From Promethearchaeum syntrophicum (GTDB lineage Archaea; Asgardarchaeota; Lokiarchaeia; Sigyniarchaeales; Promethearchaeaceae), in NCBI RefSeq assembly GCF_008000775.2, contig NZ_CP042905.2, forward strand, positions 3,000,001 to 3,032,000: 32,000 bases of DNA. The letters run 5' to 3'. The notes beneath the pieces are model-generated. The model ran no database searches and had not been told where the DNA came from. It was given only the letters and a program-made list of their open reading frames with translations. A program made the position numbers and the translations under genes. This document shows positions 1,493 to 30,412 of the stretch, in pieces (positions within the stretch are counted from its first letter, which is position 1; each line of letters opens with the position of its first letter).

Positions 1493-2059
1493 TTGATAAA
1501 AATGGAGTATCTTAAAGCTGATATTGAATCTCTTGGTGAAAGAACCTCAGAAGAAATCATCAAAGATGAAGTATTAGATTTCATGAAAGCTTGTTATCAA
1601 TGTGGAACTTGTTCGGGTTCATGTCCCTCAGGACGTAGGACTGCGATAAGAACTCGTCAACTGATCAGAGAATCATTGCTAAATATAGAAAAAGTTCTTG
1701 CCGATCCAGATATATGGATGTGTACCACATGTTTCACTTGTTTTGAGCGATGTCCCAGATCACTCCCTACGACCAATATAATCCTCAAATTGCGTAATTT
1801 AGCATGTCAAAGAGGTTTTATGATGGCGTCCCATAAAAGCTTAACTCATATTTTATTTAAAACTGGTCATGGAGTCCCTTTAGGAGGAACAGATAATAAA
1901 TGGACACAAGCACGTGTTTCCTATGGATTACCAAAAATTCCCCCAACAACACATTCACATCCAGAAGCTGTAAAAGAAGTTGAATTATTAATGAAATCAA
2001 CAAATTTTGATAAATTAGTTGATTATAAATCTGAAGAAACTAGCAATGAACAAAAATAA
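1493..2059 (+). CDS. hdrC: heterodisulfide reductase subunit C-like protein (two 4Fe-4S motifs)
   Basis: Two CxxCxxCxxxCP motifs are present: CYQCGTCSGSCP and CTTCFTCFERCP. The size is typical of HdrC. The ORF-track start is a TTG at 1493; the ATG at 1502 (MEYLK) is the more likely start. Confidence 0.85.
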   Translation: MIKMEYLKADIESLGERTSEEIIKDEVLDFMKACYQCGTCSGSCPSGRRTAIRTRQLIRESLLNIEKVLADPDIWMCTTCFTCFERCPRSLPTTNIILKLRNLACQRGFMMASHKSLTHILFKTGHGVPLGGTDNKWTQARVSYGLPKIPPTTHSHPEAVKEVELLMKSTNFDKLVDYKSEETSNEQK

Positions 2060-2130: not shown

Positions 2131-2907
2131 ATGAGCAGAAAATTTAAAATTGGAATTCAAGAGTTCGAATCATGTGGAAAAGATATAATTAATCTTTTAA
2201 ACTTAAGACCTGAGATGGAAAAATTACTTAAGAACGTGGAAATTACTCTCTTAGGATACACATCTAACATTGACTGGTCAAGATACCCAAGTATAAAAAT
2301 TCGGGAAGAAATATCAGAAACGGATAAATTTGATGTTATTTTATGCATTGGAAGTATTTTACCCGGACAAGAAAAAAGAATCCATGATTTACGGAATAAA
2401 ACAATACAAATTGTAGCAGTTGGCGCTTGCTCTCTATATGGTGTTCGGCCATCAATCTCCACAAGTGGTTTCACGAATGAGGAGTGGGATGAAGTGGAAA
2501 AAGTTACCAAAAACAAGGTTCCAGAATATCAAGATCTTTTTCGTAAATCTGTGTGTGAAATTGTGAAAACAGAATATAGAATACCCGGATGTCCAATAGA
2601 TGAATATTCATTTATGAAATTTATATATGACCTCATTGAGGGTAAATTACCTCGCCTTGAAGTAGCCCCGGTGTGTTGGGAATGTAAATTGAAAGGTAAC
2701 GAATGTATTTTTATGACTAAAGGAATAGTCTGTTTAGGTCCAATAACTCAATCAGGTTGTGGCGCTCGTTGTCCAACACTCGAAAATAAGCCATGTAGCG
2801 GTTGTGGGGGTTTACTCATCGATGCCAATTTAAAGGAATGGTATCAGATGGTCCTTAAATATGGAAAAACAATTGAGGAAGTCAACAAATTCTTTGTTAG
2901 CAGGTAA
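2131..2907 (+). CDS. [NiFe]-hydrogenase small-subunit-like Fe-S protein (sulfhydrogenase delta HydD / FlxC-like); no large-subunit partner in the window
   Basis: It is colinear with the NADH-ubiquinone oxidoreductase 20-kDa / HydD fold: VAVGACSLYG, IPGCP, PVCWECKLKGNECI, CLGPITQSGCGARCP, CSGCGG. The N-terminal CxxC of the proximal cluster is reduced to ESCGKD. Confidence 0.7.
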   Translation: MSRKFKIGIQEFESCGKDIINLLNLRPEMEKLLKNVEITLLGYTSNIDWSRYPSIKIREEISETDKFDVILCIGSILPGQEKRIHDLRNKTIQIVAVGACSLYGVRPSISTSGFTNEEWDEVEKVTKNKVPEYQDLFRKSVCEIVKTEYRIPGCPIDEYSFMKFIYDLIEGKLPRLEVAPVCWECKLKGNECIFMTKGIVCLGPITQSGCGARCPTLENKPCSGCGGLLIDANLKEWYQMVLKYGKTIEEVNKFFVSR

Positions 2908-2915
2908 GATATATC

Positions 2916-5390
2916 ATGGAAAAAACACAATCAAGCACATTAAATAATATTGATATAAAACAAAAAGGTCAGAAAATAGGCGTTTTTGTTTGTCATTGTG
3001 GGAGTAATATAAATGGAGTGGTTGATTGCAAAGCATTAGCTGAGGAATCTCTTAAAAACCCTGGAGTCATTTTTGCTACGGATTATAAGTTCTTGTGTAG
3101 TGATCCTGGGCAACTTCTAATAAAAGACAAAATCGAAGAATTTGGTCTAGATCGAGTGGTTGTAGCTGCTTGTAGTCCCCGAATGCATGAAAAAACATTC
3201 CGTCGTGTATGTCGAAAGGCAGATCTGAATCCTTTTCTCTTTGAGCAAGCAAATATTCGTGAACATTGTACTTGGGTTCATATGAATGAAAAAGAAAAAG
3301 CACACAAAAAGGCAGGGGATATAATTGCAATTTCATGTGCTAGAGCTAAAGAACTGGATATTCTTGATATTATCACTGTACCTATTACAAAAAATGCACT
3401 TATTGTCGGAGGAGGAATAGCGGGAATATCAGCCGCTCTTGATCTGGCAGATATGGGAATTCCTGTAACTCTTGTTGAGTCAACTCCAACAATTGGTGGA
3501 AATATGGCACGATTAGACAAAACTTTTCCAACAATGGATTGTTCAGCTTGTATTTTAACACCAAAAATGACAGATATTGGGCAACATCCGAACATTAATT
3601 TGATGACCTATTCTGAAATTCTCGAAGTAAATGGTTATATTGGAAATTTCGATGTCAAGATTAAGAAAAAACCTCGTTATATAAAAGAAGATAAATGTAA
3701 TGGTTGTGGCGATTGTGTACCTGTGTGTCCAGCAATTACGTCAAATCCCTTTGAAATGCATATGAGTCCAATTAAAGCAGTTTCTATTCCGTTTCCTCAA
3801 GCAGTTCCACAATTATTTACTATTGACATGGATTCTTGCATTAAATGCGGTAATTGTGAGAAAGCATGTGAACTTGAAGCTATTGATCTAAATCAAGCCC
3901 CAATAATAGTTGAGGAAAAATTTGGAGCAATAATATTAAGCACAGGATTTAAAGTGGCAGATTTAACTTTAGTGCATCCTGAATATCATTATGGAGAATA
4001 TTTGAATGTAATTAGCCATCTTGAACTTGAACGAATGCTAACTTCATTTGGTCCCTCTGAAGGTCAAATTATTCGCCCATCGGATTTTAATCGTCCAAAA
4101 AAAATACTGTTCATTTCATGTGTTGGATCCCGATCACAACGCGAAGGCTATAAACCATATTGCTGTAATGTAGGTTGTATGGCAGCTATGAAAGAAGCAC
4201 GATTAATTATTGAACATCATCCAGATACTCAAATAGATATTTCTTATATGGATGTTCGGGCTTCTGGAAAAGGATATGAAGAATTCTGGGAAAAAGCCGC
4301 TCACGAATATGGGATAACCTATTTCCGTGGACGTATTGCAGAATTATATCAAGATGAGATAACACAAAACATCGTCGCTCGTTTAGAAGATACTCTTCTT
4401 AATCAACTTTTTGAAATTGAATATGATCTGGTTATTCTTGTTGGTGCGGTGGATCAAATGGATGATTTACCTAGTATAGTGAAAACTCTAAATCTTCAAC
4501 AAGGAGCAGATGGATGGTTGTTGGAAGCTCATCCAAAACTCCGACCTGTCGATACACATACAGGAGGAATTTTTGTAGCGGGATTTGTCACAGGACCAAA
4601 AGATATTCCTGCTACCGTCGCTCAAGCAAAAGCAGCGGCTTCCGGTGTTGCCACCTTAATTATGCAAGGAGAAGTCGAAATTGAGCCATATTATGCCGTA
4701 ATTGATCCAGAAATGTGTGGAGCGTGTAAAAAATGCGAAGTTACTTGCCCGTTTGGAGCTCCAGTTTTAGTTACTGATAAAGCACAAGAAGGAAAAATCT
4801 TAGAAATTAATCCCGCTTTATGTACAGGTTGTGGAACGTGTGTCGCAGAATGCAAATATGGAGCAATTCAACAAAATAATTTCACAAGCCGGCAATTATT
4901 TGCATCAACTGATAGAGCATCTGAAAAAATTGAATTGGATATTCCCGATTCCAAATGGGAACCAAATATTCTTATATTCGCTTGCAATTGGTGTAGCTAT
5001 ACTGGGGCCGATTTAGCAGGGACCAGTCGGATTCAATACCCTCCCAATGCACGAGTCGTTCGGATGATGTGTTCGGGAAGATTCGAATTAAGTTTTGGAA
5101 TTCAAGCTTTACTTAATGGATTTGATGGAGTAATGGTAGCTGGGTGTCATCTTGGAGATTGCCACTATACCTCAGGAAATTATAAAATGGAGCGTAGAGC
5201 AGAATATATGCCCCCTATACTTAGAAATTTAGGAATTAATCCAAAGAGATTTCGACTTGAGTGGTGTAGCGCATCAGAGGGGTTACGGTGGGCAGAATTA
5301 AATAAACAATTTGTTGAAGAATTGAAAATCTTAGGTCCTTCTTCCATGCGAAAACGGGTTCAACAAATAAGAAATAACATAAATAAATAA
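2916..5390 (+). CDS. hdrA: heterodisulfide reductase subunit A fused to a C-terminal MvhD-like domain
   Basis: N-terminal VFVCHCGSNI; FAD motif VGGGIAGISAALDLA; MDCSACILTPK. Four ferredoxin-type motifs: CNGCGDCVPVCP, CIKCGNCEKAC, CGACKKCEVTCP, CTGCGTCVAEC. The C-terminus carries the MvhD signature ILIFACNWCSYTGADLAG...VRMMCSGR...GVMVAGCHLGDCHY. Confidence 0.9.
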   Translation: MEKTQSSTLNNIDIKQKGQKIGVFVCHCGSNINGVVDCKALAEESLKNPGVIFATDYKFLCSDPGQLLIKDKIEEFGLDRVVVAACSPRMHEKTFRRVCRKADLNPFLFEQANIREHCTWVHMNEKEKAHKKAGDIIAISCARAKELDILDIITVPITKNALIVGGGIAGISAALDLADMGIPVTLVESTPTIGGNMARLDKTFPTMDCSACILTPKMTDIGQHPNINLMTYSEILEVNGYIGNFDVKIKKKPRYIKEDKCNGCGDCVPVCPAITSNPFEMHMSPIKAVSIPFPQAVPQLFTIDMDSCIKCGNCEKACELEAIDLNQAPIIVEEKFGAIILSTGFKVADLTLVHPEYHYGEYLNVISHLELERMLTSFGPSEGQIIRPSDFNRPKKILFISCVGSRSQREGYKPYCCNVGCMAAMKEARLIIEHHPDTQIDISYMDVRASGKGYEEFWEKAAHEYGITYFRGRIAELYQDEITQNIVARLEDTLLNQLFEIEYDLVILVGAVDQMDDLPSIVKTLNLQQGADGWLLEAHPKLRPVDTHTGGIFVAGFVTGPKDIPATVAQAKAAASGVATLIMQGEVEIEPYYAVIDPEMCGACKKCEVTCPFGAPVLVTDKAQEGKILEINPALCTGCGTCVAECKYGAIQQNNFTSRQLFASTDRASEKIELDIPDSKWEPNILIFACNWCSYTGADLAGTSRIQYPPNARVVRMMCSGRFELSFGIQALLNGFDGVMVAGCHLGDCHYTSGNYKMERRAEYMPPILRNLGINPKRFRLEWCSASEGLRWAELNKQFVEELKILGPSSMRKRVQQIRNNINK

Positions 5391-5399
5391 ATAAAATAT

Positions 5400-6476
5400 G
5401 TGAGAGTGAAAATCATTACTAAAAAAAGGAATTATAGGGAAGGAAATATTTCAGACATCATAAAATTTATTGATGAAATTTTAAAAACATATACTGTTAT
5501 TGCACCAACAAAAATTGAAGGAAAACAAACAAAATTCACTCAAATTTCTTCAAGCACTGAAATCCTTCTTAATCCGAATCACCAAACAAGTTTCTCTTTT
5601 AAAGAGTGGTTACTTCCACGAAATCAAATTTTATTGCAGTATAATTTCGATAAAAATGACATTACCATAGATGATTCCGTTGATTTTTCTTCTAAAAAAC
5701 GGATATTATTCGGACCTCATCCATGTGACCTCCATTCAATTCAAATTCTTGATAAAATCTTTTTAGAAGAAAAAGATTTGGATGTTCATTATAAAAAATT
5801 ACGTGAAAATACATTAATTATTGGATTAGGATGTAAAGAACCATTTAAAAATTGTTTTTGTGCAAGTGTAAATACACTTGAGCCACCAGATGGAACTTAT
5901 GATTTATTCCTTTATCTAAAAGGGAAAAAATTCTATGCATTTGAAGGTTCTTCTGAAGGGGCAGATTTAATAAAAAAATTGAAATCTAAAGTGTCAATTG
6001 ATGGAGAGAAACAGATATCCTTAATAAATAAACACATTGCTTCTTCACAAACATTTAAATTCCCAAAAGATGAAGATATTGGAGCAAAAATCAAAGAAAC
6101 CTACGGATCTGAGTTTTGGGATGATCTTGGTAAAAAATGTTTTGGATGCGCAGGTTGCACAATCGTTTGCCCAACATGTTATTGCTTCTTTGTGGATGAC
6201 AAAGTAGAAAATGATGGAAAGAAAAAAATGTATAAACGTATTAGAGATTGGGATTCTTGTACTCTAAATAATTGGGCTTTAGCAGCAGGAGGTCATAATT
6301 TTCAAAATAATCGAGGAATTCGCTTAAATAGACGATTTATGCACAAATTCTCACAATTAAAAACGAAATTAGGAAGGATTGCTTGTGTTGGATGCGGTCG
6401 TTGTATTGATATATGTCCTACAGGTGCAAGTAACCCAGTAAATGTCATAAAAGATCTAATTAAATTCAAAAAATAA
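5400..6476 (+). CDS. 4Fe-4S cluster protein, sulfhydrogenase beta (HydB) / FlxB / AsrA-like
   Basis: Motifs CFGCAGCTIVCPTCYCF and CVGCGRCIDICP, plus the upstream GCKEPFKNCFCAS, are typical of HydB/AsrA-type subunits. The start is a GTG; there is a 9-bp gap from hdrA. Confidence 0.7.
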   Translation: MRVKIITKKRNYREGNISDIIKFIDEILKTYTVIAPTKIEGKQTKFTQISSSTEILLNPNHQTSFSFKEWLLPRNQILLQYNFDKNDITIDDSVDFSSKKRILFGPHPCDLHSIQILDKIFLEEKDLDVHYKKLRENTLIIGLGCKEPFKNCFCASVNTLEPPDGTYDLFLYLKGKKFYAFEGSSEGADLIKKLKSKVSIDGEKQISLINKHIASSQTFKFPKDEDIGAKIKETYGSEFWDDLGKKCFGCAGCTIVCPTCYCFFVDDKVENDGKKKMYKRIRDWDSCTLNNWALAAGGHNFQNNRGIRLNRRFMHKFSQLKTKLGRIACVGCGRCIDICPTGASNPVNVIKDLIKFKK

Positions 6477-6506: not shown

Positions 6507-7388
6507 ATGGATAATAAAAAAATAGACACTAAAACGAACAGTTGGAAACCGATGACTGCCCGTCTTTCTAAAATTGTGCCTCAATCTTCTTTTGAAAAAT
6601 TGTATTCAATAGAACTTGAAAATCCGAATGAAAAAAAGCAGTTCACTTGGATGCCGGGTCAATTTCTTGAGCTTTCAGTTTTTGGAATTGGGGAAGCTCC
6701 ATTTTCAATTTCGAGTTCCCCTACAAGTGGTACTTTGGAAATATGTGTTCGGGCAACTGGATCAATTACTAATGCACTTGAAAAAATGAAAGAAGGAGAA
6801 AAAGTAGGGATACGTGGACCATTTGGGAACTCTTTTGTTGTTCCTGAAGCAAAAGGAAAGAATTTAGTTTTAGTTGCAGGAGGGATTGGTCTTGTTCCTT
6901 TACGTTCAATGATAAATTATGTATTGGATAAGCGGGAAGAATTCAAAGAAGTATTTATTTTTTACGGAACACGAGATCCAACCCAAATTCTGTTCCAAGA
7001 TGAAATTGAACAATGGCAAAAACGCAATGATATTCAATTTATGTTAACGGTCGATCGAGGATCTCCTGATGCAGGATTTGGTGAACCAGATCCTAGTGGA
7101 AAATATCAAGGAAATGTAGGGGTGGTAACAACTCTTTTTTCAAAAATAGATATTCCGTCAAAAAATACAATGGGATTTATTGTTGGACCCCCAGTGATGT
7201 TTAAATTTGTTGTTAAGGAATTTGAAAAACTCCAAATTAAACCATCAAATATTATTGTTTCACTTGAACGAGTTATGCATTGTGGAATCGGCAAATGCGC
7301 ACATTGTCAAATTGGGGATATTTTAGTATGTAGAGATGGTCCCATATTCACTTATGAACAAGTTCAATCAATGCCAGATGCAATTTAG
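6507..7388 (+). CDS. FAD/NAD(P)-binding 2Fe-2S oxidoreductase, sulfhydrogenase gamma (HydG) / FlxA / AsrB / PyrK-like
   Basis: Ferredoxin-reductase-type barrel (PGQFLELSV...APFSISS), nucleotide-binding LVLVAGGIGLVPLRS, and a C-terminal 2Fe-2S motif CGIGKCAHCQIGDILVCRDGP. Confidence 0.8.
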   Translation: MDNKKIDTKTNSWKPMTARLSKIVPQSSFEKLYSIELENPNEKKQFTWMPGQFLELSVFGIGEAPFSISSSPTSGTLEICVRATGSITNALEKMKEGEKVGIRGPFGNSFVVPEAKGKNLVLVAGGIGLVPLRSMINYVLDKREEFKEVFIFYGTRDPTQILFQDEIEQWQKRNDIQFMLTVDRGSPDAGFGEPDPSGKYQGNVGVVTTLFSKIDIPSKNTMGFIVGPPVMFKFVVKEFEKLQIKPSNIIVSLERVMHCGIGKCAHCQIGDILVCRDGPIFTYEQVQSMPDAI

Positions 7389-7397
7389 TGATAACTT

Positions 7398-9236
7398 ATG
7401 AAAAAAAACAATGAACAAATCAATGAAAATATTATGAAAATTAAAGATCAACCAGAATCTATCCAACAATTAATTGATTTAGGAAAAATCTACCTTCAAA
7501 AACATGATATATTAGAAGCACGCTATTATTTCTTAAATGCTATTAATCAATATCCAGATAAAGTTGATGGATACCTATCTATGGGAATGTTTGCATATAA
7601 GGATAATAATTTGGATGTTGCGCATGATTATTTTAACCAAGCGATTGATATTGATGAAGAAAATATTAATGCTTGGCTTGGTCTAGCAAAAATAAATTTA
7701 AAACTTACAGCTCTAACAAGTACAAAACGCTATATTAAACGAGCATTAAAACTTGCCCCCAAAAATCCAGAAGTTCTTTTAATTTGGGGAGTATATAATT
7801 TTTTAATTCATAAATATGGATTATCTGAAAAAATTTTACTCCAAGTCGTATCCTCATCAAAAAATGAAACATTCCTGAATGCAACTTTTTATTTAGGTTT
7901 GTTGTATGCAAAACAGAGAGAATTTATGAAGGCAGCTAGTAAATTCCGCCATTTATCTGAAATTGAAACTTATAAAGATAGAAATCTATTTAATGATGCG
8001 GTTGTTCAAAATAATTTAGGTGTTATTGAATTTCAATTAGGAAATTATGATAAAGCAGAAGAGATTTTTAAGAATTTGCTTGTTCGGAAAACAACGTTTG
8101 AATCCACAGTATTAATGAATCTTGCTCAAATGTATTGGATCCAAGATAAAATCGATGACGCAGTTAAATCTATTAATCAAGCACATAACATTGATGTAAA
8201 AATTTGGCCATGGATGCAGGAATTAAATGAATACTTACAAACTGGGGAAGAAGGATTAGCGAATAAAATTAAGTCTTTACTAAAACATAACCCTGATGGA
8301 TTAAACTTGTCAATGTATTTAGGGTGTGTGATCCCCAACCGTTATCCGTTTATTGAAGCCGCTTCTCGGCATGTACTTGATTTCTTTGAAATTGGAATTC
8401 AAGAGCTTGAAGGAGCCTCTTGTTGTCCCGCTCCTGGTGTTTTTAGATCCTTTGATTTTCTTACGTGGTACGTAGTTGGAGCAAGAAATATTACATTGAG
8501 TGAAAAATTAGGCGTGGATATGTGCACAATGTGTAACGGTTGTTATGGAACGTTAAATGATGTCAATTGGGAACTTAAAGAAAATAAATCCATACGCGAT
8601 GAAGTAAATCAAAAATTGAAAGATATTGATCGTGAATTTAAAGGTTCTATTAATGTTCGTCATATAATTGATGTGTTTTATAATAGTGTCGGTGTAAAAG
8701 AAATTAAAAAAAAAATTGTAAATCCAATGAAATTAAATGTTGCAGTCCATTATGGATGTCATCTCCTAAAACCTTCTTTTAATAAACCTTGGAAAGAATC
8801 GAGTGAAGCTCCAACATTCTTTGATGAATTGGTGGAAATCACTGGAGCAAAATCCATTCCTTATAAAGATAAAATGATGTGTTGCGGAGCAGGTGGAGCA
8901 GTTCGTGGAGGAATGAAGGAAGTATCATTGGATTTTACGTATGAAAAACTTCTAAATATGCGGAAAGCGGGAGTAGATATTATAGTAGTTTGCTGTCCTT
9001 TCTGTCATTTACAGTTTGATTTAGGCCAAATTGAAATAAATAGTATTTATAAGGATAAAATAGCAGAACCGTTTAAAATTCCGGTTATCTATTACACTCA
9101 ACTCTTGGGATTGGCATTAGGTATGGATCCTTTTAAATTAGGTCTATTAAAAACTCCGAAAGGAAAAGGTGTTCCTCCATTCATTCCTGTTGAGTCAATT
9201 TTTTCTCGTTATATTGAACAGATTGATTGGATTTGA
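7398..9236 (+). CDS. hdrB: TPR-repeat domain fused to heterodisulfide reductase subunit B (two CCG domains)
   Basis: Residues about 20-300 form multiple TPR-like units (LGKIYLQKHDILEARYYFLNAINQYPD, NAWLGLAKINL, NNLGVIEFQLGNYDKAEEIF, MNLAQMYWIQDKIDDAV). Residues about 300-612 hold two CCG domains (LGCVIP...ASCCPAPG...CTMCNGC and YGCHLL...MMCCGAGG...VVCCPFC). Confidence 0.85.
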   Translation: MKKNNEQINENIMKIKDQPESIQQLIDLGKIYLQKHDILEARYYFLNAINQYPDKVDGYLSMGMFAYKDNNLDVAHDYFNQAIDIDEENINAWLGLAKINLKLTALTSTKRYIKRALKLAPKNPEVLLIWGVYNFLIHKYGLSEKILLQVVSSSKNETFLNATFYLGLLYAKQREFMKAASKFRHLSEIETYKDRNLFNDAVVQNNLGVIEFQLGNYDKAEEIFKNLLVRKTTFESTVLMNLAQMYWIQDKIDDAVKSINQAHNIDVKIWPWMQELNEYLQTGEEGLANKIKSLLKHNPDGLNLSMYLGCVIPNRYPFIEAASRHVLDFFEIGIQELEGASCCPAPGVFRSFDFLTWYVVGARNITLSEKLGVDMCTMCNGCYGTLNDVNWELKENKSIRDEVNQKLKDIDREFKGSINVRHIIDVFYNSVGVKEIKKKIVNPMKLNVAVHYGCHLLKPSFNKPWKESSEAPTFFDELVEITGAKSIPYKDKMMCCGAGGAVRGGMKEVSLDFTYEKLLNMRKAGVDIIVVCCPFCHLQFDLGQIEINSIYKDKIAEPFKIPVIYYTQLLGLALGMDPFKLGLLKTPKGKGVPPFIPVESIFSRYIEQIDWI

Positions 9237-9303: not shown

Positions 9304-11364
9304 CTATAACGTAGTTAATCCGGAGGTATTTCCATCGTATTCTTCAGGGGTGTCTGCTCCTGATTGTGGATATGCAGCAAGTGCGTAATCAAATGCATTT
9401 TCCATAAATGTTGAAGGATTGCTGCCATAATGATTAATTAAAGTATATTCTAAGAAGAAATATGTCCACATTCCATTTTGTTGGGCGGAATAATCATAAC
9501 CATAACCACTGTCTGAACAAGTTGTAGTGCAATAAACAGCATTACTGTTAGGCATGGACATTAATTCAGGTCCAAATCCACCAGAATAACAATGATCAAT
9601 AAATACAAAAACACTTTCTGCAACGGCGTTATCTAAAATTCCAGCTACTTCAGTGTCATATAAATCACCATCTTCTCCACTTTCTCCAGAAGCACAATCC
9701 CATGCACATATATATGAAGATCCTGATCCATCACCTGAACCATGACCAGAAGTAATATATGCTACATCACCTTCTTGACTTGCTAGCCATTGCAAATAGT
9801 ATTTAATATTATATTCTGTAGCATATCCATCGTATTTTGGATAATTTGTGGTATGTCCATCACCTAAAACAATTACATTTTCACTTGAATAACCGCAAAC
9901 TTGTGTGAGATAATTGAACCAATCAGTTGCATCTTCATCACAATATGAAAGATCACTTATAGCTTTATAATCAGAAATTCCAACTATTAACGCGAATTTT
10001 CCCCCAGAACTTGGGATGTTATCAACGGTGACTGATATAGAATCTTCTTCATAGTTTCCTGCTTCATCATAAGCGCGAACAGTTATTGAATGAGAGCCTT
10101 CAGAAGCTGTTGTAGTGTCCCATGACCAAGAATAAGGAGCAGTTAAATCGTCAGTCCATGCACCAGCATCAATCTTATACTGTGTTTTTACTACCCCTAC
10201 ATTATCTGTTGCGGTTGCTGAAATAGAGATGGTATCTTGGACTGTTGCACCATTAGTTGGAGCCGTAATTGATACAACGGGTTTTTCATAGTCTCCACCA
10301 CTAATTGTGTAATAACCAACTGTTGCAGTATAGGCTGTGCTTGAAGCAGATGAAGTATACATTCTTACAGCAATATAATATGTTCCAGCTGTTGTAATGG
10401 TATATGAGCATGTTTCAGGATTAGACGTCGTATATCCTCTTGCTAAATAACTTGTATAATCTGGAGATTGGCAGATATAACAATCAATGTCATTAGAATT
10501 CCCCCATGAAACCGAAACATCCATGAGTCCAGGCTCTGCATTAACTTCGTAATAATCAACTTCATAACCGGCGACAGCACCTACAAAATCACGCGATACA
10601 TGAACGGGGTTACTTGGATTATTATTTACGTTTACAGAAATTGAATCATCAGCATAATTTCCTGCCGCATCATAAGCTCGAGCGTTAATTGTATGAGTCC
10701 CATCTGAAACAGCTGTACTATCCCAACTGAATCCATATGGACTAGTTGTATCATCAGTCCAGGCACCCCCATCAATGTTGCATTGAACTTTGGTTACCCC
10801 CACATTGTCATTCGCGTCAACAGCAATTGAAATGGTTCCACTTACTGTATCTAAATTATTTGGAGATGTAATTGAAACTGTTGGATCTACAGTATCTGAA
10901 CCACCATCATCGATATAATATTTTACAGAAAGTGTATAAGCGGTTGACGAAGCCCAACGACTATACATTCGAACGGCAATGTAATAAGTCCCCTCACTCT
11001 GAATATTATAGGAGCACGTTTCAGGATTATTCGTAGTATACCCCCTTGCTAAATAATTAGTATAATCGGGTGTTGGACAAATATAGCAATCAATATCATA
11101 ACTATTCCCCCAAGATACGGAAACTTCCATCAAACCTGGGACTACATTATCAATTTGAAAATAGTCGACTTCATATCTTGCTACAGCATCATTAAATACG
11201 TCAGTTACTTGAACTGCTCGAATGCCCATTTCACTATTAAGATTTTTACGCACAATTTCGTCTGAATCTACTGCTAAACTCTGATTTTGTGCCGTAAATA
11301 CAATAGTGGTGCTTATGAACATTATCAAAATAAATAATTTAAATCGTTTACTAAAGGATTTCAT
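9304..11364 (-). CDS. secreted clan-CD (caspase/legumain-like) cysteine peptidase with two N-terminal PPC + Ig-like modules
   Basis: Signal peptide MKSFSKRFKLFILIMFISTTIVFTAQ from the ATG at 11364 (the ORF track extends to 11436). Two repeats each combine a pre-peptidase-C-terminal-like domain (YEVDY...DIDCYIC...GTYYIAVRMY) and a bacterial-Ig-like domain (VSITSP...DNVGV...AYDAAGN). The C-terminal caspase-like domain reads FALIVGISDY...ITSGHGSG...FVFIDHCYSGGF, giving a His/Cys dyad. Confidence 0.75.
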   Translation of the reverse strand: MKSFSKRFKLFILIMFISTTIVFTAQNQSLAVDSDEIVRKNLNSEMGIRAVQVTDVFNDAVARYEVDYFQIDNVVPGLMEVSVSWGNSYDIDCYICPTPDYTNYLARGYTTNNPETCSYNIQSEGTYYIAVRMYSRWASSTAYTLSVKYYIDDGGSDTVDPTVSITSPNNLDTVSGTISIAVDANDNVGVTKVQCNIDGGAWTDDTTSPYGFSWDSTAVSDGTHTINARAYDAAGNYADDSISVNVNNNPSNPVHVSRDFVGAVAGYEVDYYEVNAEPGLMDVSVSWGNSNDIDCYICQSPDYTSYLARGYTTSNPETCSYTITTAGTYYIAVRMYTSSASSTAYTATVGYYTISGGDYEKPVVSITAPTNGATVQDTISISATATDNVGVVKTQYKIDAGAWTDDLTAPYSWSWDTTTASEGSHSITVRAYDEAGNYEEDSISVTVDNIPSSGGKFALIVGISDYKAISDLSYCDEDATDWFNYLTQVCGYSSENVIVLGDGHTTNYPKYDGYATEYNIKYYLQWLASQEGDVAYITSGHGSGDGSGSSYICAWDCASGESGEDGDLYDTEVAGILDNAVAESVFVFIDHCYSGGFGPELMSMPNSNAVYCTTTCSDSGYGYDYSAQQNGMWTYFFLEYTLINHYGSNPSTFMENAFDYALAAYPQSGADTPEEYDGNTSGLTTL
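10024..11175 (-). repeat. intragenic tandem duplication, two units with a period of about 609 nt (203 aa) encoding PPC + Ig-like modules
   Basis: Residues about 88-270 and 291-471 of the protease align end to end, for example SVSWGNSYDIDCYICPTPDYTNYLARGYTTNNPETCSY against SVSWGNSNDIDCYICQSPDYTSYLARGYTTSNPETCSY. Confidence 0.85.
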
Positions 11365-11614
11365 AATATCATCTTCTAACAATTGGAAAAAACCCAATCC
11401 GAGATAATAAAATAAGATTTTGAAAGGTTTTTCCAATTGTTAAATATTTTAATAAATAGATTTATAAATTTATGGATCTTTTTTATATTAATATATAAAT
11501 ATTAAAAAAAAAATCCCACAAAATATAAAAAAAAAGGATTTTATTTTTTTCATTTAAAAGGAAAAAAATAATTTTTAAGTAGAATACCGACAAAATTAGA
11601 TTAGGGAAAAATTT

Positions 11615-13572: not shown

Positions 13573-14076
13573 TTATTTTTCTAAATAATAGAGTATTTCT
13601 TCCTCTAAAGTATCCTTATATTCAGGATTTTCATCAATTTTCCCTAAACAATCTCCCGTTTTATTAAAAATATACATTGCTGGAATATGAAACATATCAA
13701 ATTTTAGATCTATGGCTTCTGGAGGACTTGGAGGTGAAATCCATATAGGTTTCCCTTTTTCACGTGCATATGGTGCTTTAACCTTAATATTTGATAAAAC
13801 TTCTACTTTGAAACGTTCATCTTTTACTGTATCATCAATTTTAGCAAGTTCAGGTAAGTTCTTTACGCAATCTTTGCACCATGAAGCACCAAAAGCAACT
13901 ATCGTAATTTTTTCAGCATTTTTATCTAAAAAATCTTTAATTTTATTAGTTTTTTCTAAATTAGGATGATATTTACGAAAATTTCCTTTGTAAAGTTCAT
14001 TAGATGCAATGTAATCCTTACTTGGAGTCGTTTTTGATTTTATATCAGATAATTTTAATTTTTCTTTGTCGAACAT
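13573..14076 (-). CDS. thioredoxin-fold protein (WCxxC active site)
   Basis: TIVAFGASWCKDCVKNLPELAKI carries the WCKDC redox motif in a thioredoxin/TlpA-like context. There is an N-terminal extension of about 60 aa. Confidence 0.75.
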   Translation of the reverse strand: MFDKEKLKLSDIKSKTTPSKDYIASNELYKGNFRKYHPNLEKTNKIKDFLDKNAEKITIVAFGASWCKDCVKNLPELAKIDDTVKDERFKVEVLSNIKVKAPYAREKGKPIWISPPSPPEAIDLKFDMFHIPAMYIFNKTGDCLGKIDENPEYKDTLEEEILYYLEK

Positions 14077-14848: not shown

Positions 14849-16438
14849 TTATCGAGCTTTCTTTGCTTTATGAACCTCTTTTCCAGCATTTCTTAAAGCT
14901 TTTGGTAAAGCTTTCGTATATGCTTGTTGTTCTATTTTATTTTTTGCCTCAGTGGCTTCTTTAATTTTTGATATTATCATAGTTAATTCAGCTTTAGTTC
15001 CATCGGAAAGAAATTTCGCTTCTTTAACCAATATACTCTCGGCTCGTTTAATATTCAATTCTGTTATTCGGTTTTGTATTTTTCTCTCTTGGCGTTTTGC
15101 TTTCTGAACATTTCCAGTTATTGACATAGCAGTCGTTCCTTTTAATCCCATTTCTATAATCATTAATTGAATATTTCGATGCCCACCTAGTACTTCAATT
15201 AATCTTGATAAATTTTCTAGTCGATTAATGCTCGAATTGGAATTAAACTCACTGATAGAACCACGTCCACCCATTGTTTGAACTACTTCATATGCAGCTT
15301 GATTATAAAATTTACTAATTAAATATTTTCCTTGTGCTGCTTGAACGGCTACACTTCCTTCATCTGTTGGATTAGGTTTTTCCCCATGATGGATTTTGTT
15401 ACCCACCTTTTTATCATAAAAATCAGCAATCTGGAACGCAAAGGCTGTGTATGCTGCAGCTTTAGAATAAATATCGTCTAAAGTATGGCTGATTCCTTGA
15501 TTTTTAAATAAAGGTTTTCCAAATTGATGCCGAATTTGAGAGTAAATTACACCATGTGCAAGCGCACTCCAAATTCCTGCAATCCCCGCACCAATAATTG
15601 CTACTCGTTCGGGAGTAAGCCCACGGAATAATCGTTTATAACCTTCACCTGGTTTTGCTAACATTCGGTCTGCAGGAACAGTAACATTATCATATGTTAC
15701 TTTTCCAACACCAATGCCCTCCGCCCCCGGGATTCTTAAACGTTCTGTTTTTAATCCTTCATCTCCACGCTCGAATAAAGTGAGCATCATAGTCATTCGA
15801 GGATTTGAAATGTCAGTAACTCCATATGAGCTAAAATAATCAGCTACAGCACCATTTGTTGTATATATTTTGGTCCCATTGTAGGTAATCGAGCCATCAT
15901 CGCCAATATTGGCTTGCATTTTCATGTTTACCGCATCTGAGCCGTGATCAATTTCGGTAATCCCAATCCCACCAATAGATTGCCCGTTATATATTTTTTT
16001 TAATGCTTTTTCTTGAATCTCTGTTCGATTCGGATTATGAAATAAGGAATTTCCTACCAGGATAGAAGACGCGGTTGCTGCCATATCAGCTTCAGGGCTT
16101 AAGGATACATTACAGAGGTTAAGGAGCATTTGTCTTTTACATGACCCTTCATTGCCATCATAAGGGTTCATTCGCTGGAGTTGATAATTTTCACCCCATT
16201 TTGGAAAAAGGGCGTATGCATCTCCATTTTTATAGGCTTCATTTGAAAAAGAAACGAGTTTTACATTCTTTTCTTGGAAATCTGATACCATATCTCTTTC
16301 CTCCTTAGATAATATGGGAAATAGATTGGCGTTGATAAATGAATAACGATTTTTTAAGTTGAGTGCTTTCTCGTAATTTTTTTCTAAGAGATTAGTATAA
16401 AGTGCTTCATTAATGTTTAGTTTCAATTTTTTCACCAT
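14849..16438 (-). CDS. acyl-CoA dehydrogenase family protein with N-terminal and Lys-rich C-terminal extensions
   Basis: ACAD motifs GIGITEIDHGSDAVNMK, YNGTKIYTTNGAVADYF, RHQFGKPLFKNQGISHTLDDIY and VQTMGGRGSISEF. It is 529 aa, whereas I recall typical ACADs at roughly 380 aa. Confidence 0.85.
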   Translation of the reverse strand: MVKKLKLNINEALYTNLLEKNYEKALNLKNRYSFINANLFPILSKEERDMVSDFQEKNVKLVSFSNEAYKNGDAYALFPKWGENYQLQRMNPYDGNEGSCKRQMLLNLCNVSLSPEADMAATASSILVGNSLFHNPNRTEIQEKALKKIYNGQSIGGIGITEIDHGSDAVNMKMQANIGDDGSITYNGTKIYTTNGAVADYFSSYGVTDISNPRMTMMLTLFERGDEGLKTERLRIPGAEGIGVGKVTYDNVTVPADRMLAKPGEGYKRLFRGLTPERVAIIGAGIAGIWSALAHGVIYSQIRHQFGKPLFKNQGISHTLDDIYSKAAAYTAFAFQIADFYDKKVGNKIHHGEKPNPTDEGSVAVQAAQGKYLISKFYNQAAYEVVQTMGGRGSISEFNSNSSINRLENLSRLIEVLGGHRNIQLMIIEMGLKGTTAMSITGNVQKAKRQERKIQNRITELNIKRAESILVKEAKFLSDGTKAELTMIISKIKEATEAKNKIEQQAYTKALPKALRNAGKEVHKAKKAR

Positions 16439-20477: not shown

Positions 20478-22334
20478 ATGGCGTTTGATTCAGAAAATGG
20501 CCTTCCTTTTCTTGCTACTGCATTGTTGACTAGCGTTGGGTTGTTGATGCTTATAGTTTCGCTTTTAAAAGGAAACAAAAGAATTAAACGTTGGATAATA
20601 CCTGTAATCATTCACAATATTTCTCTCTATGTGCAATTCGTAGATAATTCATTTTTTGAAGATAAGTATACCGTTATTCACCTTATCATATCTGGGATAG
20701 GTTTAATATCCTTAATCATAATAGCGATTATAGAATATAACGAGGAATTTCCTCTAAATCACGCGATTGAACGAAAAAGAATTCTGCAATATATTTTTTA
20801 TTCACTTACTTCAATTCTCGTATATATTCTTCTTTTACACCTAATCTTTAATACATCAGAAAAACTCTATACATTTTTTTATTATATCCTTGCTATTGGA
20901 ATTTTATTCTCAATTTTTTTGCTTTTAAGAATTTATAAAAAAAAAAAAAGAACACCAACTCATATGAGCATAGTTATTATCCTTGTGATAATAGAAGTAG
21001 ATCTAATTTTATATATAATTACAGATTTTACGACGACCGATTTATATCCATTTCTTCGTGTTTTTGATGCCGGAATAGGAATTGGGATGTTATTTTTTGC
21101 TTTTATCGCATCGGTCGAAAATCAATTATTAGAGATCTATGAAAAAGAAAGGTTGCAAAATAAATTATTAAGGCGAACTCAAGATAAAATCATTTCCCAA
21201 ACTCAATTAAGTTCTATTCAGATTATTTCAGGAGGGTTTGCTCATGATTTTAATAATATTCTCACTTCAATCATTGGAAATATAAGTTTAATTGAAGATT
21301 ACCCAATATTTCAAGGAGAAGGAAAGGAATTCATCATTGATCTTAAATCAGCATCATCTCAAGCAAAAAATATGGTAAATCAGCTTTTGGTATTTTCTAA
21401 GGGAGAGGAATTTTTAAATAAGGAAATCATCACCTTTAAAGAAATATTGAAAATTACCACTGATTTTACATTACGAGGGAGAAAATCAAAACCTATATAT
21501 GATATTGATAAAAATTTATGGGCTATATATGGAGATCCAATCCGAATAAGTCAAATCATTCAGAATTTGGTGATTAATGCTGATCAATCCATGCCAGAAG
21601 GAGGTATAATTGAGCTGAATGCACAAAATGTGGAAATCGAGGATAATAATCAGTTCAATTTACAACCTGGAAAATATCTTCTATTTCAGATAAAAGATTC
21701 TGGTGTCGGAATTCCTTCCAATATTCAAGAAAAAATCTTTACTCCATTTTTTACTACCAAACCAGAAGGACAGGGATTTGGATTAAGCATATGTAAGAAA
21801 ATTGTAGAAGATCATCAAGGTTATATAAATTTCAAGACAACAGTTGACAAAGGTTCGATTTTTTATTTTTATACGCCTGCAAAAATGAATAGTACAATAT
21901 TAAATGTGAAACATGAACAACTAAAAGATAAGTTTTCAGGTTTTGGGTTAATTTTAGACGATAATATCTTGGTTTTACGTGTTATTGAAAGCATGCTTAA
22001 GAATTTGGGAATCAAAGCAATTACATCTTCTGAAAGTACAACATTTCTTTCAACATATGAAGATCTGCTTAAGAAAAAGATAAACGTTGATATTCTAATT
22101 GTAGATCTAACTTTACCAGGTGATATCGGAGGAAAGCAATTAATTAATGATATTCGAAGATTCAATCCAGAAGCTTACGTGGTTGTTTCAAGCGGATATT
22201 CTAATGATTTTGTATTACAAAATTATCAAGATTACGGATTTAATGATTTACTTAGGAAACCTTATGATAAGAATGAATTAATAAAGGTATTAGAGAAAGC
22301 TTTCAAAAATAAAAACCCTAACCCAAATATTTAA
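20478..22334 (+). CDS. membrane-bound hybrid sensor histidine kinase with a C-terminal receiver domain
   Basis: Multi-TM N-terminus; H-box GGFAHDFNNILTSIIG; N/G boxes QNLVINADQSMPEGG, DSGVGIP, FFTTKPEGQGFGLSICKKIV. The REC domain reads LILDDN...ILIVDLTLPG...LRKPYD. Confidence 0.85.
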   Translation: MAFDSENGLPFLATALLTSVGLLMLIVSLLKGNKRIKRWIIPVIIHNISLYVQFVDNSFFEDKYTVIHLIISGIGLISLIIIAIIEYNEEFPLNHAIERKRILQYIFYSLTSILVYILLLHLIFNTSEKLYTFFYYILAIGILFSIFLLLRIYKKKKRTPTHMSIVIILVIIEVDLILYIITDFTTTDLYPFLRVFDAGIGIGMLFFAFIASVENQLLEIYEKERLQNKLLRRTQDKIISQTQLSSIQIISGGFAHDFNNILTSIIGNISLIEDYPIFQGEGKEFIIDLKSASSQAKNMVNQLLVFSKGEEFLNKEIITFKEILKITTDFTLRGRKSKPIYDIDKNLWAIYGDPIRISQIIQNLVINADQSMPEGGIIELNAQNVEIEDNNQFNLQPGKYLLFQIKDSGVGIPSNIQEKIFTPFFTTKPEGQGFGLSICKKIVEDHQGYINFKTTVDKGSIFYFYTPAKMNSTILNVKHEQLKDKFSGFGLILDDNILVLRVIESMLKNLGIKAITSSESTTFLSTYEDLLKKKINVDILIVDLTLPGDIGGKQLINDIRRFNPEAYVVVSSGYSNDFVLQNYQDYGFNDLLRKPYDKNELIKVLEKAFKNKNPNPNI

Positions 22335-30296: not shown

Positions 30297-30412
30297 TTAA
30301 ATTAACACTATTTTCTGTATCAATATTTTTTTAATATTTGTTTAATTATTTTGCTACAGAAAATGAATTCCTTCAATTTATGAAAGGTTATAATAGGAAA
30401 GGTTTTAGAAAA

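Follow-up and report, generated by a model that had tools for sequence, protein, structure and literature searches.

HdrABC-type complexes hold a central place in how anaerobes conserve energy, and outside the methanogens both the disulfide on which Hdr acts and the wiring of Hdr to other enzymes are mostly unknown. Among the described relatives of the protein examined here, termed TPR-HdrB, the HdrB subunits of methanogens (5ODC_B, 8RVV_B, and 7BKB_B) share with it the fold, the two CCG domains with their ten Cys residues, and a His residue (H154 in 5ODC_B, H455 here), and their genes likewise sit with hdrA and hdrC. The plain HdrB proteins of Asgard archaea (~340 aa; P0050–P0067, loci L021–L076) come from the same phylum and often from the same genome, and share a catalytic domain that is 50–62% identical, a C-terminal tail, and the association with HdrA-MvhD, HdrC, and polyferredoxin; they differ in having no TPR and in keeping a strict hdrC-hdrB-hdrA-mvhD order. 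The CCG (non-cubane cluster) module is also often fused to other domains, as in HdrD, DsrK, TmcB, TfrB, GlpC, LutA/LldE, and EtfD. Such fusion proteins can act on protein-bound sulfur (DsrK on DsrC) or on quinone- or ETF-linked substrates, and their fusion partners, unlike that of TPR-HdrB, are Fe–S or membrane domains, never TPR. Two further systems bear on the present locus: the NADH-linked FlxABCD-HdrABC complexes of sulfate reducers and syntrophs, for its gene content, and the glycosyltransferases OGT and SPINDLY, for the placement of a TPR superhelix immediately N-terminal to a catalytic domain.

The stretch of DNA analyzed here (32,000 nucleotides, hereafter the window) contains TPR-hdrB at positions 7398..9236 on the + strand, as are all features given below in window coordinates, encoding 612 aa in an ATG-to-stop ORF with no internal stop or frame break. 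The match of its operon to Supplementary Table 4 of Imachi 2020 identifies the gene as P. syntrophicum MK-D1 DSAG12_03223, which is entered there as "Heterodisulfide reductase B" with the TPR unmentioned, and which is transcribed in MK-D1 at 244 RPKM, a level similar to that of its operon mates (222–320 RPKM). An earlier note on this DNA had pointed to positions 8290–8300 as the place where a frameshift might have merged two genes. This is excluded by the junction, which aligns continuously across independent NCBI, JGI, ENA, and Logan assemblies, two complete genomes from cultures among them; TPR-HdrB is thus one genuine gene, not two merged ORFs. At the start of the HdrB part, no conserved internal Met is present, the homologues showing M, L, or I. 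In a search with the TPR profile (A2), the TPR module never turned up as a separate orthologous gene: the matches of at least 264 bits were all fusions or fragments on contigs shorter than 1.5 kb. This profile was used instead of the single TPR-half sequence, which gave just two homologue matches owing to an insensitive word prefilter; an alignment-based scan likewise replaced a single-sequence scan of the species genomes, which gave zero matches. A split ancestor, with a TPR gene beside a plain hdrB, was seen in 0 of 65 plain loci.

The C-terminal half contains, as the earlier note had recognized, a canonical HdrB with two CCG domains. The catalytic module (residues 303–582; 8304..9143) is supported by profile, sequence, and structure matches: Pfam detects the CCG domain twice (PF02754; E = 6.2e-31; 106.8 bits, cut-off 20.6), and the NCBIfam HdrB model TIGR03288 scores 400.4 bits over residues 304–583 (cut-off 345.15), whereas the Methanosarcina-type NF041780 stays below its cut-off (148.5 vs 450) and other NCBIfam models of CCG families fall far short (TfrB 65/385, LdhH 58/800, and TmcB 21/735). 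The phmmer E-values are ~1e-101 to 8rvv_B and 2e-97 to 5odc_B, and Foldseek superposes the predicted module on the solved methanogen HdrB structures (8rvy_B and 5odc_B) with a TM(target) of 0.91–0.92, an rmsd of 1.6–1.7 Å, a probability of 1.00, and an identity of 51–52%. Both CCG domains fit the pattern CX31-40CCX35-36CXXC, with five Cys residues per non-cubane [4Fe–4S] cluster. On alignment with 5ODC_B, the first motif (C310, C342, C343, C379, and C382; 8325..8543) and the second (C454, C495, C496, C533, and C536, with H455; 8757..9005) correspond one-to-one to the cluster ligands C9/41/42/78/81 and C153/193/194/231/234. Nine of the ten Cys residues and H455 are invariant in an alignment of 45 homologues; C310 is conserved there in at least 90% and is invariant in the 16-sequence A2 alignment. 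H154 and E87 of 5ODC_B belong to the proposed proton path of HdrB (PMC13518236, Extended Data Fig. 6), and the latter is replaced by D388 in TPR-HdrB, one of the differences from the methanogen enzyme.

Besides the ~300-aa N-terminal TPR extension, TPR-HdrB also differs from methanogen HdrB in the ~30-aa C-terminal tail (residues 583–612 plus stop; 9144..9236), which is defined by tblastn extents and group comparison. This tail is common to plain Asgard HdrB and missing from methanogen and ANME HdrB, and is predicted with a pLDDT of 88–92 at residues 581–610, dropping to 72 in the final two. Consistent differences between fused and plain Asgard HdrB are limited to K463, F602, and D610, the latter two sitting in the tail, and at 82 conserved positions the fused forms and the methanogen/ANME group have the same residue. 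Remodelling of the active site in the fused forms was considered and discarded on comparison with the plain paralogues, and a switch to a different class of substrate is therefore less favored. Judged by sequence, the HdrB half appears catalytically standard and otherwise unaltered.

The assignment of the N-terminal half to TPR, also made in the earlier note, is borne out by the agreement of Pfam profiles with the helix pairs of an AlphaFold2 model (612 aa; mean pLDDT 91.3, pTM 0.89), although the length of ~300 aa given for the TPR holds for the whole N-terminal extension, the TPR proper comprising seven repeats of ~245 aa in total. A first helix (residues 2–16; 7401..7445; AF2, pLDDT 75–90) precedes the repeats (residues 22–265; 7461..8192), which are supported by Pfam TPR_1/2/8/12/14/16/19, AF2 helices, and Foldseek, and are formed by helix pairs 22–34/38–51, 56–68/72–85, 90–102/106–119, 124–136/140–153, 156–172/176–188, 197–213/217–230, and 235–248/252–265. 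Pfam TPR families cover residues ~27–270 (E = 2.2e-19 for TPR_2, 2.4e-14 for TPR_1, and 1.5e-13 for TPR_12), with scores above the respective cut-offs (68.3 bits vs 27, 52.9 vs 27.8, and 51.1 vs 30.1), and Foldseek matches this part to an 8-repeat consensus TPR and to the TPR domains of OGT and SPINDLY. Within the repeats (45 sequences), conserved residues occur at the structural positions of TPR and, besides these, only at E40, N206, and N241; with the WPW motif (W270 82%, P271 96%, and W272 80%), these three are the only non-structural conserved residues of the TPR half. N206 (96%) and N241 (100%) are the sole near-invariant or invariant non-structural residues in the last two repeats, next to the catalytic domain, and both occupy TPR position 6 (repeats 6 and 7; Asn206-to-Asn241 codon span 8013..8120), as assigned from the Pfam TPR_2 register (residues 203–228 = profile positions 3–28) and the AF2 helix register. 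Apart from these two position-6 Asn residues, the TPR groove is poorly conserved.

Between the repeats and the catalytic module lie the WPW motif (residues 270–272), a capping helix (273–292), and a short connection to HdrB (together 8205..8303; conservation and AF2), with a pLDDT of 93–96 over residues 271–300 and ~10 residues leading from the capping helix into the HdrB strand 303–306. The spacing from WPW to the LGC of HdrB is 34–38 aa in clades A and B and in the window protein, and 41–59 aa in clade C, a member of which is modeled with a pTM of 0.85 and a disordered linker (290–303). For two clades, the prediction is of a TPR packed against the catalytic domain instead of one dangling as a free adaptor; the two pTM values, the lower one obtained despite a disordered linker, and the location of the fusion-specific F602 and D610 in the tail are our grounds for regarding it as a docked arm, although pTM speaks only indirectly for a fixed TPR–HdrB interface. 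The rate of evolution of the TPR is about double that of the catalytic domain: mean column entropy is 1.9–2.7 bits in individual TPR helices vs 1.03 bits in the catalytic module, and identity between paralogue clades is 25–44% vs 54–68%.

Homologues of full length form ~45 clusters from four data sources (37–54% identity), and all those bearing organism names are from Lokiarchaeia (Promethearchaeum, Lokiarchaeum, and Harpocratesius). Scanning 185,579 species genomes for the pattern LGC[VI]IPNR[YF] retrieved 15 loci with TPR upstream, from named Promethearchaeota or archaeal MAGs and including the complete chromosome of Lokiarchaeum ossiferum, and 65 other loci (plain Asgard, ANME, and methanogen) in which HdrB has no TPR. 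Other Asgard archaea, ANME, and methanogens have plain HdrB, and as far as the sequences indicate, the fusion is restricted to Loki-type Asgard archaea. The earlier description of HdrB as a stand-alone protein of ~300 aa thus fits its closest relatives, the plain HdrB of these 65 loci, but not the wider family, in which fusions of CCG and Fe–S domains are common (HdrC–HdrB fusions P0070–P0084 and HdrD/TfrB-type models). Gene order distinguishes the two forms as well. In 61 of the 65 plain loci hdrC lies beside hdrB, in the order hdrC-hdrB(-hdrA), also the methanogen arrangement, whereas the fused gene always stands outside this otherwise rigid order. In the window, hdrA and hdrC lie close by, as they do in 11 of the 15 other fused loci. 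A polyferredoxin gene follows TPR-hdrB in 11/15 loci, and the fused-gene clusters carry non-hydrogenase input modules, with a polyferredoxin gene adjoining in most lineages. Genomes contain 2–3 fused and plain paralogues, with an input module that differs from set to set; in MK-D1, the TPR module is present on two of the five hdrB genes recorded, the context of the second fused paralogue (P0008) being taken from DSAG12_02801-08 (Imachi 2020, Supplementary Table 4) and from the L. ossiferum orthologue. Since the neighbor-joining tree of HdrB domains carries no support values, no single fusion event is claimed. No description of the fusion was found in literature searches on HdrB with TPR or within individual Asgard/Lokiarchaeota papers, and TPR-HdrB counts here as a hitherto undescribed version of a known enzyme, whose members are named plain "HdrB" or "hypothetical protein".

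In the window, TPR-hdrB is the final gene of a six-gene operon with gaps of 8–71 nt. It begins with hdrC (1493..2059; DSAG12_03218; TIGR03290, 191 bits vs a cut-off of 160), followed by a homologue of the Fe–S small subunits FrhG/MvhG/ShyD (2131..2907; DSAG12_03219; Pfam Oxidored_q6), whose NCBIfam matches to ShyD/HydD/VhuG-like models lie below cut-offs and which is labelled 'FrhG-like oxidoreductase' in Imachi 2020. The third gene encodes an HdrA2-type HdrA with a fused C-terminal MvhD (2916..5390; DSAG12_03220; Pfam FlpD at residues 685–807, Fer4, and FAD; NF040770 HdrA2 1013 bits vs a cut-off of 1100). Next come a FloxB/sulfhydrogenase-beta/AsrA-like Fe–S protein (5400..6476; DSAG12_03221; Pfam Fer4_22; NCBIfam AsrA/ShyB/HydB-like matches below cut-offs) and a FloxA/sulfhydrogenase-gamma/AsrB-like [2Fe–2S] protein binding FAD and NAD(P) (6507..7388; DSAG12_03222; Pfam NAD_binding_1, FAD_binding_6, and DHODB_Fe-S_bind, with NCBIfam matches too), which Imachi et al. 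named 'FloxB' and 'FloxA', respectively; the latter is presumed to provide the NAD(P)H site. FloxA-like and FloxB-like proteins, MvhD (=FlxD), and HdrABC recall the FlxABCD-HdrABC system, from which the window operon differs in having an FrhG-like gene instead of an FlxC/FrhB-like one, in the fusion of MvhD to HdrA, and in the TPR of its HdrB. The MvhADG-HdrABC hydrogenase complex, in turn, is marked by a [NiFe] large subunit, MvhA, encoded with MvhG and MvhD, and in the window only the small-subunit-like gene (2131-2907) is present: no NiFeSe_Hases domain was detected by Pfam in window ORFs of at least 100 aa, nor did tblastn with a Loki large subunit give any match in the full 32 kb. The sHdr layout of hdrC1B1A-hyp-C2B2 does not fit either, as no second HdrB/C pair, LbpA, TusA, or DsrE was found in window ORFs. 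No polyferredoxin gene lies next to the TPR-hdrB of the window. An actin homologue occurs in the vicinity, which does not in itself point to a link with the Hdr complex.

From its membership in this operon, TPR-HdrB is most likely the disulfide/thiol end of an NAD(P)H-linked bifurcating Hdr complex, and that the gene is real and encodes a functional HdrB module within an Hdr complex may be held with high confidence. By analogy to HdrABC-MvhAGD and Flx/Flox-Hdr, the six operon products would assemble in the cytoplasm into a complex that bifurcates or confurcates electrons at a flavin. NAD(P)H exchange would take place at the FloxA-like FAD protein, and electrons would pass through the FloxB-like and FrhG-like Fe–S proteins and MvhD to the HdrA flavin, where the electron pair would be split between ferredoxin and the HdrC-to-HdrB branch. 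At the end of this branch, a disulfide would be reduced or, in the confurcating direction conceivable for a syntrophic amino-acid degrader, a dithiol oxidized. The TPR, permanently packed against the catalytic domain as suggested by AF2 models, conservation, and gene neighborhoods, would act as a protein-docking arm, with the active-site chemistry remaining the same.

That the TPR mediates protein–protein contacts is probable. Its likeliest job may be to bring HdrB(C) together, in a paralogue-specific manner, with partner redox modules: a Flox-type module in the present operon, polyferredoxin and an AOR module in sister clades. This assignment is based on the displaced gene order, the paralogue-specific input modules, the polyferredoxin gene in 11/15 loci, and the fast, clade-specific evolution of the TPR. 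In methanogens, polyferredoxin wires Hdr into super-assemblies, and HdrB within a native super-assembly can carry an extra tag at its N-terminus (PMC13518236). With no polyferredoxin beside the window copy, the assembly argument is here borrowed from the sister clades. We lean, on balance, toward the overall reading of a standard HdrB in a bifurcating or confurcating Hdr complex, with the TPR as a docking arm likely serving paralogue-specific assembly; as its partner, a module for assembly or electron transfer, and not a substrate protein, is suggested only tentatively.

The alternative that survives best is that the TPR delivers the substrate, its groove capturing a disulfide, persulfide, or dithiol carrier borne by a protein or peptide for the non-cubane clusters. 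The placement of the superhelix directly N-terminal of the catalytic domain, its structural match to the TPR of OGT and SPINDLY, and the position-6 Asn residues of the last two repeats all argue for it, and the OGT TPR is reported to contain a peptide-binding Asn ladder, so that a protein or peptide substrate fits at least as well as assembly does. This likeness is an analogy for the working mode, not family membership: TPR-HdrB has no GT41 glycosyltransferase domain, its catalytic domain is unrelated, and it has two Asn rungs in seven repeats instead of a long ladder in 11–13. The related CCG enzymes DsrK and sHdr, moreover, work on protein-bound sulfur. As a non-methanogen, the host of TPR-HdrB differs from methanogens in having no known CoM-S-S-CoB; to our knowledge, Lokiarchaeia lack Mcr. 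No CoM biosynthesis genes were seen in the MK-D1 gene table up to DSAG12_01998, weak evidence as this covers about half of it, the only CoM/CoB match ("sulfopyruvate decarboxylase") being a mis-named phosphonopyruvate decarboxylase. TusA/DsrE-like sulfur-relay genes do adjoin another, plain hdr set of MK-D1, but the window contains no sulfur-relay genes and the fused genes have no conserved adjacent carrier gene. The conserved 359-aa neighbor was considered as a disulfide carrier and rejected, having a single Cys and no Pfam domain. Against substrate delivery also stand the poorly conserved remainder of the groove and a catalytic domain that hardly differs from that of plain paralogues encoded in the same genomes and closely resembles methanogen HdrB. 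We consider this role, in which the substrate of HdrB would be a protein, for example a TusA/DsrE/DsrC-like, lipoyl, or thioredoxin-like carrier, rather unlikely, and its specific form, with the groove and the two position-6 Asn residues binding the flexible Cys arm of a carrier to feed a protein-borne disulfide or persulfide to the non-cubane clusters, somewhat less likely still.

Far less probable is a regulatory lid, by which the TPR would gate the active-site entrance of HdrB or its HdrC interface until freed by a ligand or partner. Autoinhibition by TPR has a precedent in protein phosphatase 5, and both the intramolecular packing predicted in two clades despite one disordered linker and the fusion-specific changes in the C-terminal tail are compatible with such gating, but the capping helix, fixed in length and of high confidence in most clades, suggests a static arrangement, and Pfam reveals no sensor or ligand-binding feature. 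A role in localization, with the TPR anchoring the complex at the membrane, the cytoskeleton, or some structure of the cell surface, for which the general versatility of TPR is the sole support, is more doubtful yet, given that the protein has no transmembrane, lipid-binding, or secretion feature, that the partner genes all encode soluble redox proteins, and that no conserved neighbor is a membrane or cytoskeletal protein. The chance that a neighboring TPR gene and hdrB were joined by a sequencing or assembly error is negligible, considering the conservation of the continuous architecture in ~45 clusters of independent assemblies including the two complete cultured genomes, the fixed length of the junction, the absence of both a separate TPR orthologue and a conserved internal start codon, and the plain hdrB of 65 loci never being adjoined by a TPR gene.

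Altogether, TPR-HdrB is a well-supported refinement of annotation and not the demonstration of a new mechanism. Its setting lends it wider interest: the first two Asgard archaea brought into culture belong to Lokiarchaeia, and the syntrophic H2/formate metabolism of this group, which figures in models of eukaryogenesis, is thought to depend on HdrABC-type complexes. Used as bait, the TPR offers a concrete experimental handle on what TPR-HdrB contacts. A polyferredoxin, AOR, or Flox module as its partner would show how bifurcating super-complexes specific to each paralogue are put together in Asgard archaea, in a manner different from the polyferredoxin-only wiring of methanogens. A substrate carrier as its partner would answer the question of the Hdr substrate, and if the groove were indeed to bind a Cys arm, the enzyme containing TPR-HdrB would be the first among HdrABC-type bifurcating enzymes to carry its own receptor for a protein substrate, and the TPR would be a direct handle on the physiological substrate of Hdr in non-methanogenic archaea.

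TPR-hdrB (7398-9236, forward strand; a single unbroken reading frame from ATG to stop in the ORF listing) starts 9 nt past the stop codon of the upstream gene and encodes 612 amino acids. Its C-terminal half carries two CCG domains (Pfam PF02754, E=6.2e-31), its residues 304-583 score 400.4 bits against the NCBIfam HdrB equivalog TIGR03288, above the curated cut-off of 345.15 bits, and phmmer against PDB sequences pairs it with HdrB from Methanothermobacter (8RVV_B, E about 1e-101) and from Methanothermococcus (5ODC_B, E 2e-97). In the alignment, the ten cluster-ligand cysteines C310, C342, C343, C379, C382 and C454, C495, C496, C533, C536 correspond to C9/41/42/78/81 and C153/193/194/231/234 of 5ODC_B. 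His154 of methanogen HdrB, which belongs to the proposed proton path (PMC13518236, Extended Data Fig. 6), is retained as the invariant H455, and E87 of 5ODC_B is replaced by D388. In the catalytic module, the fused forms and methanogen/ANME HdrB share the same conserved residue at 82 positions and differ at five core positions (T385, K399, K463, C532, and Y565); only K463, F602, and D610 consistently distinguish the fused forms from plain Asgard HdrB, the form without TPR. The C-terminal tail (583-612) is common to plain Asgard HdrB and absent in methanogen and ANME HdrB; this tail of ~30 amino acids (window 9144-9236; loci L021-L076, which include plain Asgard hdrB) is conserved as GLLRxPxxKGxPPFxP...F, with F602 and D610 as its residues specific to the fused forms. 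The gene codes for an intact HdrB module, and by the criteria of CCG motifs, TIGR03288 score, fold, and linkage to hdrA and hdrC, its C-terminal half is an HdrB.

Across residues ~27-270, Pfam assigns TPR families (TPR_2, E=2.2e-19). The description in the earlier note, an HdrB half with two CCG domains joined to an N-terminal TPR half, is thus correct for both halves, far beyond chance, on the Pfam, NCBIfam, phmmer, and cysteine-alignment results. In the AlphaFold2 model, computed from a 45-sequence alignment (mean pLDDT 91.3, pTM 0.89), an N-terminal helix (residues 2-16) is followed by seven TPR helix pairs (22-265), a WPW motif (270-272), a capping helix (273-292), a connection of ~10 residues, the HdrB fold (303-573), and the C-terminal tail, in which residues 599-602 form a short helix. 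In a Foldseek search of the PDB, the C-terminal half superimposes on solved HdrB with a target-normalized TM of 0.91-0.92, an rmsd of 1.6-1.7 Å, and 51-52% identity, and the N-terminal half is matched by TPR superhelices, namely an 8-repeat consensus TPR and the TPR domains of OGT, SPINDLY, and APC6; no solved chain combining the two halves is among these matches. In the model of P0041, a 38% identical fused homologue of the group designated clade C, the linker 290-303 is disordered (pLDDT below 50), yet pTM is 0.85. Because pTM is high in both models, the TPR is predicted to be held in a fixed packing against the catalytic domain.

The homologue search, with clusters drawn from NCBI, JGI, ENA, and Logan assemblies, returned about 45 clusters at >=92% query coverage and 37-54% identity, and all named homologues are Lokiarchaeum, Promethearchaeum, Harpocratesius, or "Promethearchaeota/Lokiarchaeota archaeon". 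When one genome per species (185,579 species) was scanned for the pattern LGC[VI]IPNR[YF], 209 matches were obtained, of which 15 have TPR upstream, all in Loki-type Promethearchaeota or archaeal MAGs; the HdrB start alone was matched in Hermod-, Hod-, and Thorarchaeota, Bathyarchaeota, Methanoperedens, ANME-2, and Methanosarcinales. A library of 1.84 billion proteins, clustered at 50% identity, contains 286 matches at E<=1e-30, and among the 150 of these listed the fusion occurs in just three full-length representatives and two fragments. A profile search with the TPR half yields, down to 264 bits, only fusions or, on contigs shorter than 1.5 kb, fragments, and then generic TPR proteins at 157 bits; given this drop, neither a stand-alone orthologue nor another catalytic partner of the TPR module was detected. 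Outside clade C, WPW and LGC are spaced 34-38 residues apart in 30 of 31 sequences (the remaining one is a regex mis-hit); in clade C, the spacing is 41-59 residues in the 12 sequences in which the two motifs could be located. At the HdrB "start" the homologues have M, L, or I, so no internal initiation site is conserved. An artefactual merge of two genes around 8290-8300, which the earlier note had asked to be checked, is ruled out by the independent assemblies, the near-constant spacing, the lack of a stand-alone TPR, and the lack of a conserved internal start. The fusion has persisted throughout the divergence of the Loki-type lineages. In a neighbor-joining tree the fused forms are nested in the Asgard HdrB clade, most as one group with clade C nearby; as the tree carries no support values, a single origin of the fusion is plausible only.

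TPR-hdrB is the last gene of an operon with intergenic gaps of 8-71 nt, comprising hdrC (1493-2059, +), a FrhG/MvhG/ShyD-like homologue of the hydrogenase small subunit (2131-2907, +; Pfam Oxidored_q6), hdrA with fused mvhD (2916-5390, +), a sulfhydrogenase-beta/AsrA-like Fe-S protein (5400-6476), and a sulfhydrogenase-gamma/AsrB-like FAD-NAD(P) protein (6507-7388). In HdrA, MvhD (FlpD domain, residues 685-807) is fused C-terminally, and the closest model is Methanosarcina HdrA2 (1013 bits, just below the 1100 cut-off). No [NiFe] large subunit is encoded anywhere in the 32-kb window, and the FrhG/MvhG-like subunit seems to be a hydrogenase Fe-S subunit put to new use as an electron conduit between the Flox-like module and HdrA-MvhD. 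The gene order is that of DSAG12_03218-03223 in Supplementary Table 4 of Imachi et al. 2020 (PMC7015854), where the products are named HdrC, FrhG-like oxidoreductase, HdrA, FloxB, FloxA, and "Heterodisulfide reductase B" (DSAG12_03223 being a hypothetical protein in KEGG), with RPKM values of 292, 320, 299, 222, 286, and 244, respectively; the TPR domain is unmentioned in that paper and its tables. TPR-hdrB sits in an hdrA/hdrC operon and is transcribed. The operon is similar to Flox-Hdr but without FlxC; having no large subunit, it does not encode an Mvh hydrogenase complex, and it is not an sHdr system.

Other genes in the window include a thioredoxin-fold protein (Thioredoxin_9; 13573-14076, -), 4.3 kb downstream of TPR-hdrB with unrelated genes between; other loci show no conserved linkage of the two. 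A 710-aa protein (9304-11436, -) combines a hydrophobic segment predicted at its N-terminus, two tandem PPC + Big_7 Ig modules that represent an internal duplication, and a caspase (Peptidase_C14) domain at its C-terminus. A 557-aa actin-family protein (28623-30296, +; Pfam Actin E=3.3e-67) with a C-terminal double zinc ribbon is consistent with the Asgard origin of the window. Two paralogous hybrid histidine kinase-receiver proteins (20478-22334, +; 24111-25874, -) have a 37-38% identical counterpart in Lokiarchaeum ossiferum (L. ossiferum; L001 12901-14598), located after its TPR-hdrB and polyferredoxin pair. An Rce1-like CAAX prenyl protease (25978-26523, -) and, within 5 kb of it, a prenyltransferase alpha-alpha-toroid protein (30338-31561, +) may represent a eukaryote-like protein-prenylation pair.

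Strain MK-D1, very probably the source of the window, has two fused paralogues. The second, P0008, a 53% identical fused homologue, is named Promethearchaeum syntrophicum, and by matching gene order we infer that it is DSAG12_02807, whose cluster (Fer4, AOR, hypothetical, MvhD, HdrA, HdrC, HdrB, and polyferredoxin) has the same layout as L. ossiferum L001 and loci L010, L012, and L013. The remaining three hdrB genes of MK-D1 have a normal KEGG assignment (PMC7015854, Supplementary Table 4), and two of their sets are ordered hdrC-hdrB-hdrA. At the loci compared, plain Asgard hdrB adheres strictly to the order hdrC-hdrB-hdrA(-mvhD), and no TPR gene lies close by. The fused gene is always out of that order: in clade A it is divergent from hdrC-hdrA-mvhD, in clade B it is divergent from hdrA and has hdrC on its downstream side, and in clade C it is beside an acyl-CoA dehydrogenase gene and a hydrogenase-HdrC-plain HdrB set. 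A ~250-aa polyferredoxin gene (48-70% identity) immediately follows the fused gene in 11 of 15 loci, a contig edge directly limiting the view at 2 more; it is absent after the window copy and in clade C.

A supercluster conserved in Lokiarchaeia, at L001 2844-12679, L006, L010, L012, L013, and MK-D1 DSAG12_02801-02808, encodes Fer4, tungsten aldehyde:ferredoxin oxidoreductase, a protein of 359 aa lacking any Pfam domain, MvhD, HdrA, and HdrC, with TPR-HdrB and polyferredoxin divergent; it suggests an AOR-coupled Hdr assembly that would parallel methanogen Hdr-polyferredoxin-Fwd wiring. In clade C (L004/L020 2087-10044; L019), the acyl-CoA dehydrogenase gene lies directly upstream of TPR-hdrB, and a 469-aa small-subunit-like gene, hdrC, plain hdrB, and a [NiFe] large subunit lie downstream; an ACAD-like gene is present in the window, too (14849-16438, -), 5.6 kb downstream of TPR-hdrB. 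Outside the window, a plain mvhD-hdrA-hdrB-hdrC set of MK-D1 (DSAG12_01135-01143; Imachi 2020 Suppl. Table 3) directly adjoins TusA/SirA, TusD, DsrE/F-like, and TusB-like sulfur-relay genes, an arrangement reminiscent of sHdr-type systems acting on protein-bound sulfur.

By analogy to HdrABC-MvhAGD and Flx-Hdr, the window operon would specify a soluble flavin-based bifurcating or confurcating complex, in which the FloxA-like flavoprotein would be the NAD(P)H exchange site, the Fe-S subunits and MvhD would carry electrons to the HdrA flavin, and electrons would there be divided between ferredoxin and an HdrC-HdrB branch turning over a disulfide/dithiol couple. The TPR would serve as a docked protein-binding arm, leaving the catalytic chemistry unchanged. 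In M. maripaludis, HdrB has been tagged at its N-terminus with success (PMC13518236). Column entropy averages 1.9-2.7 bits across the TPR helices versus 1.03 in the HdrB module; the conserved TPR positions are canonical structural sites (equivalents of G8, A20, A27, and P32), and conservation outside these is found at E40, the WPW motif, Asn206 (96%), and Asn241 (100%). By both Pfam register and helix register, the two asparagines occupy position 6 of repeats 6 and 7, which adjoin the catalytic domain. Their location, together with the fact that the Hdr substrate in non-methanogens is not known, speaks for the main rival explanation, in which the TPR would deliver a protein-borne sulfur substrate in an OGT-like manner, the likeness to OGT being one of architecture alone. 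From the models and comparative data, we favor instead paralogue-specific assembly with partner modules as the role of the TPR, because where the fusion occurs the canonical operon order is lost, the input modules are atypical, and in most lineages a polyferredoxin gene is present, because the TPR diverges fast between paralogue clades, and because the active site is unaltered.

Neither in full-text literature searches nor within the individual Asgard papers searched was the fusion found described. Altogether, the TPR-HdrB fusion is a real, lineage-restricted, and unremarked form of a known enzyme; it would become considerably more interesting should its TPR turn out to bind a carrier of the substrate.
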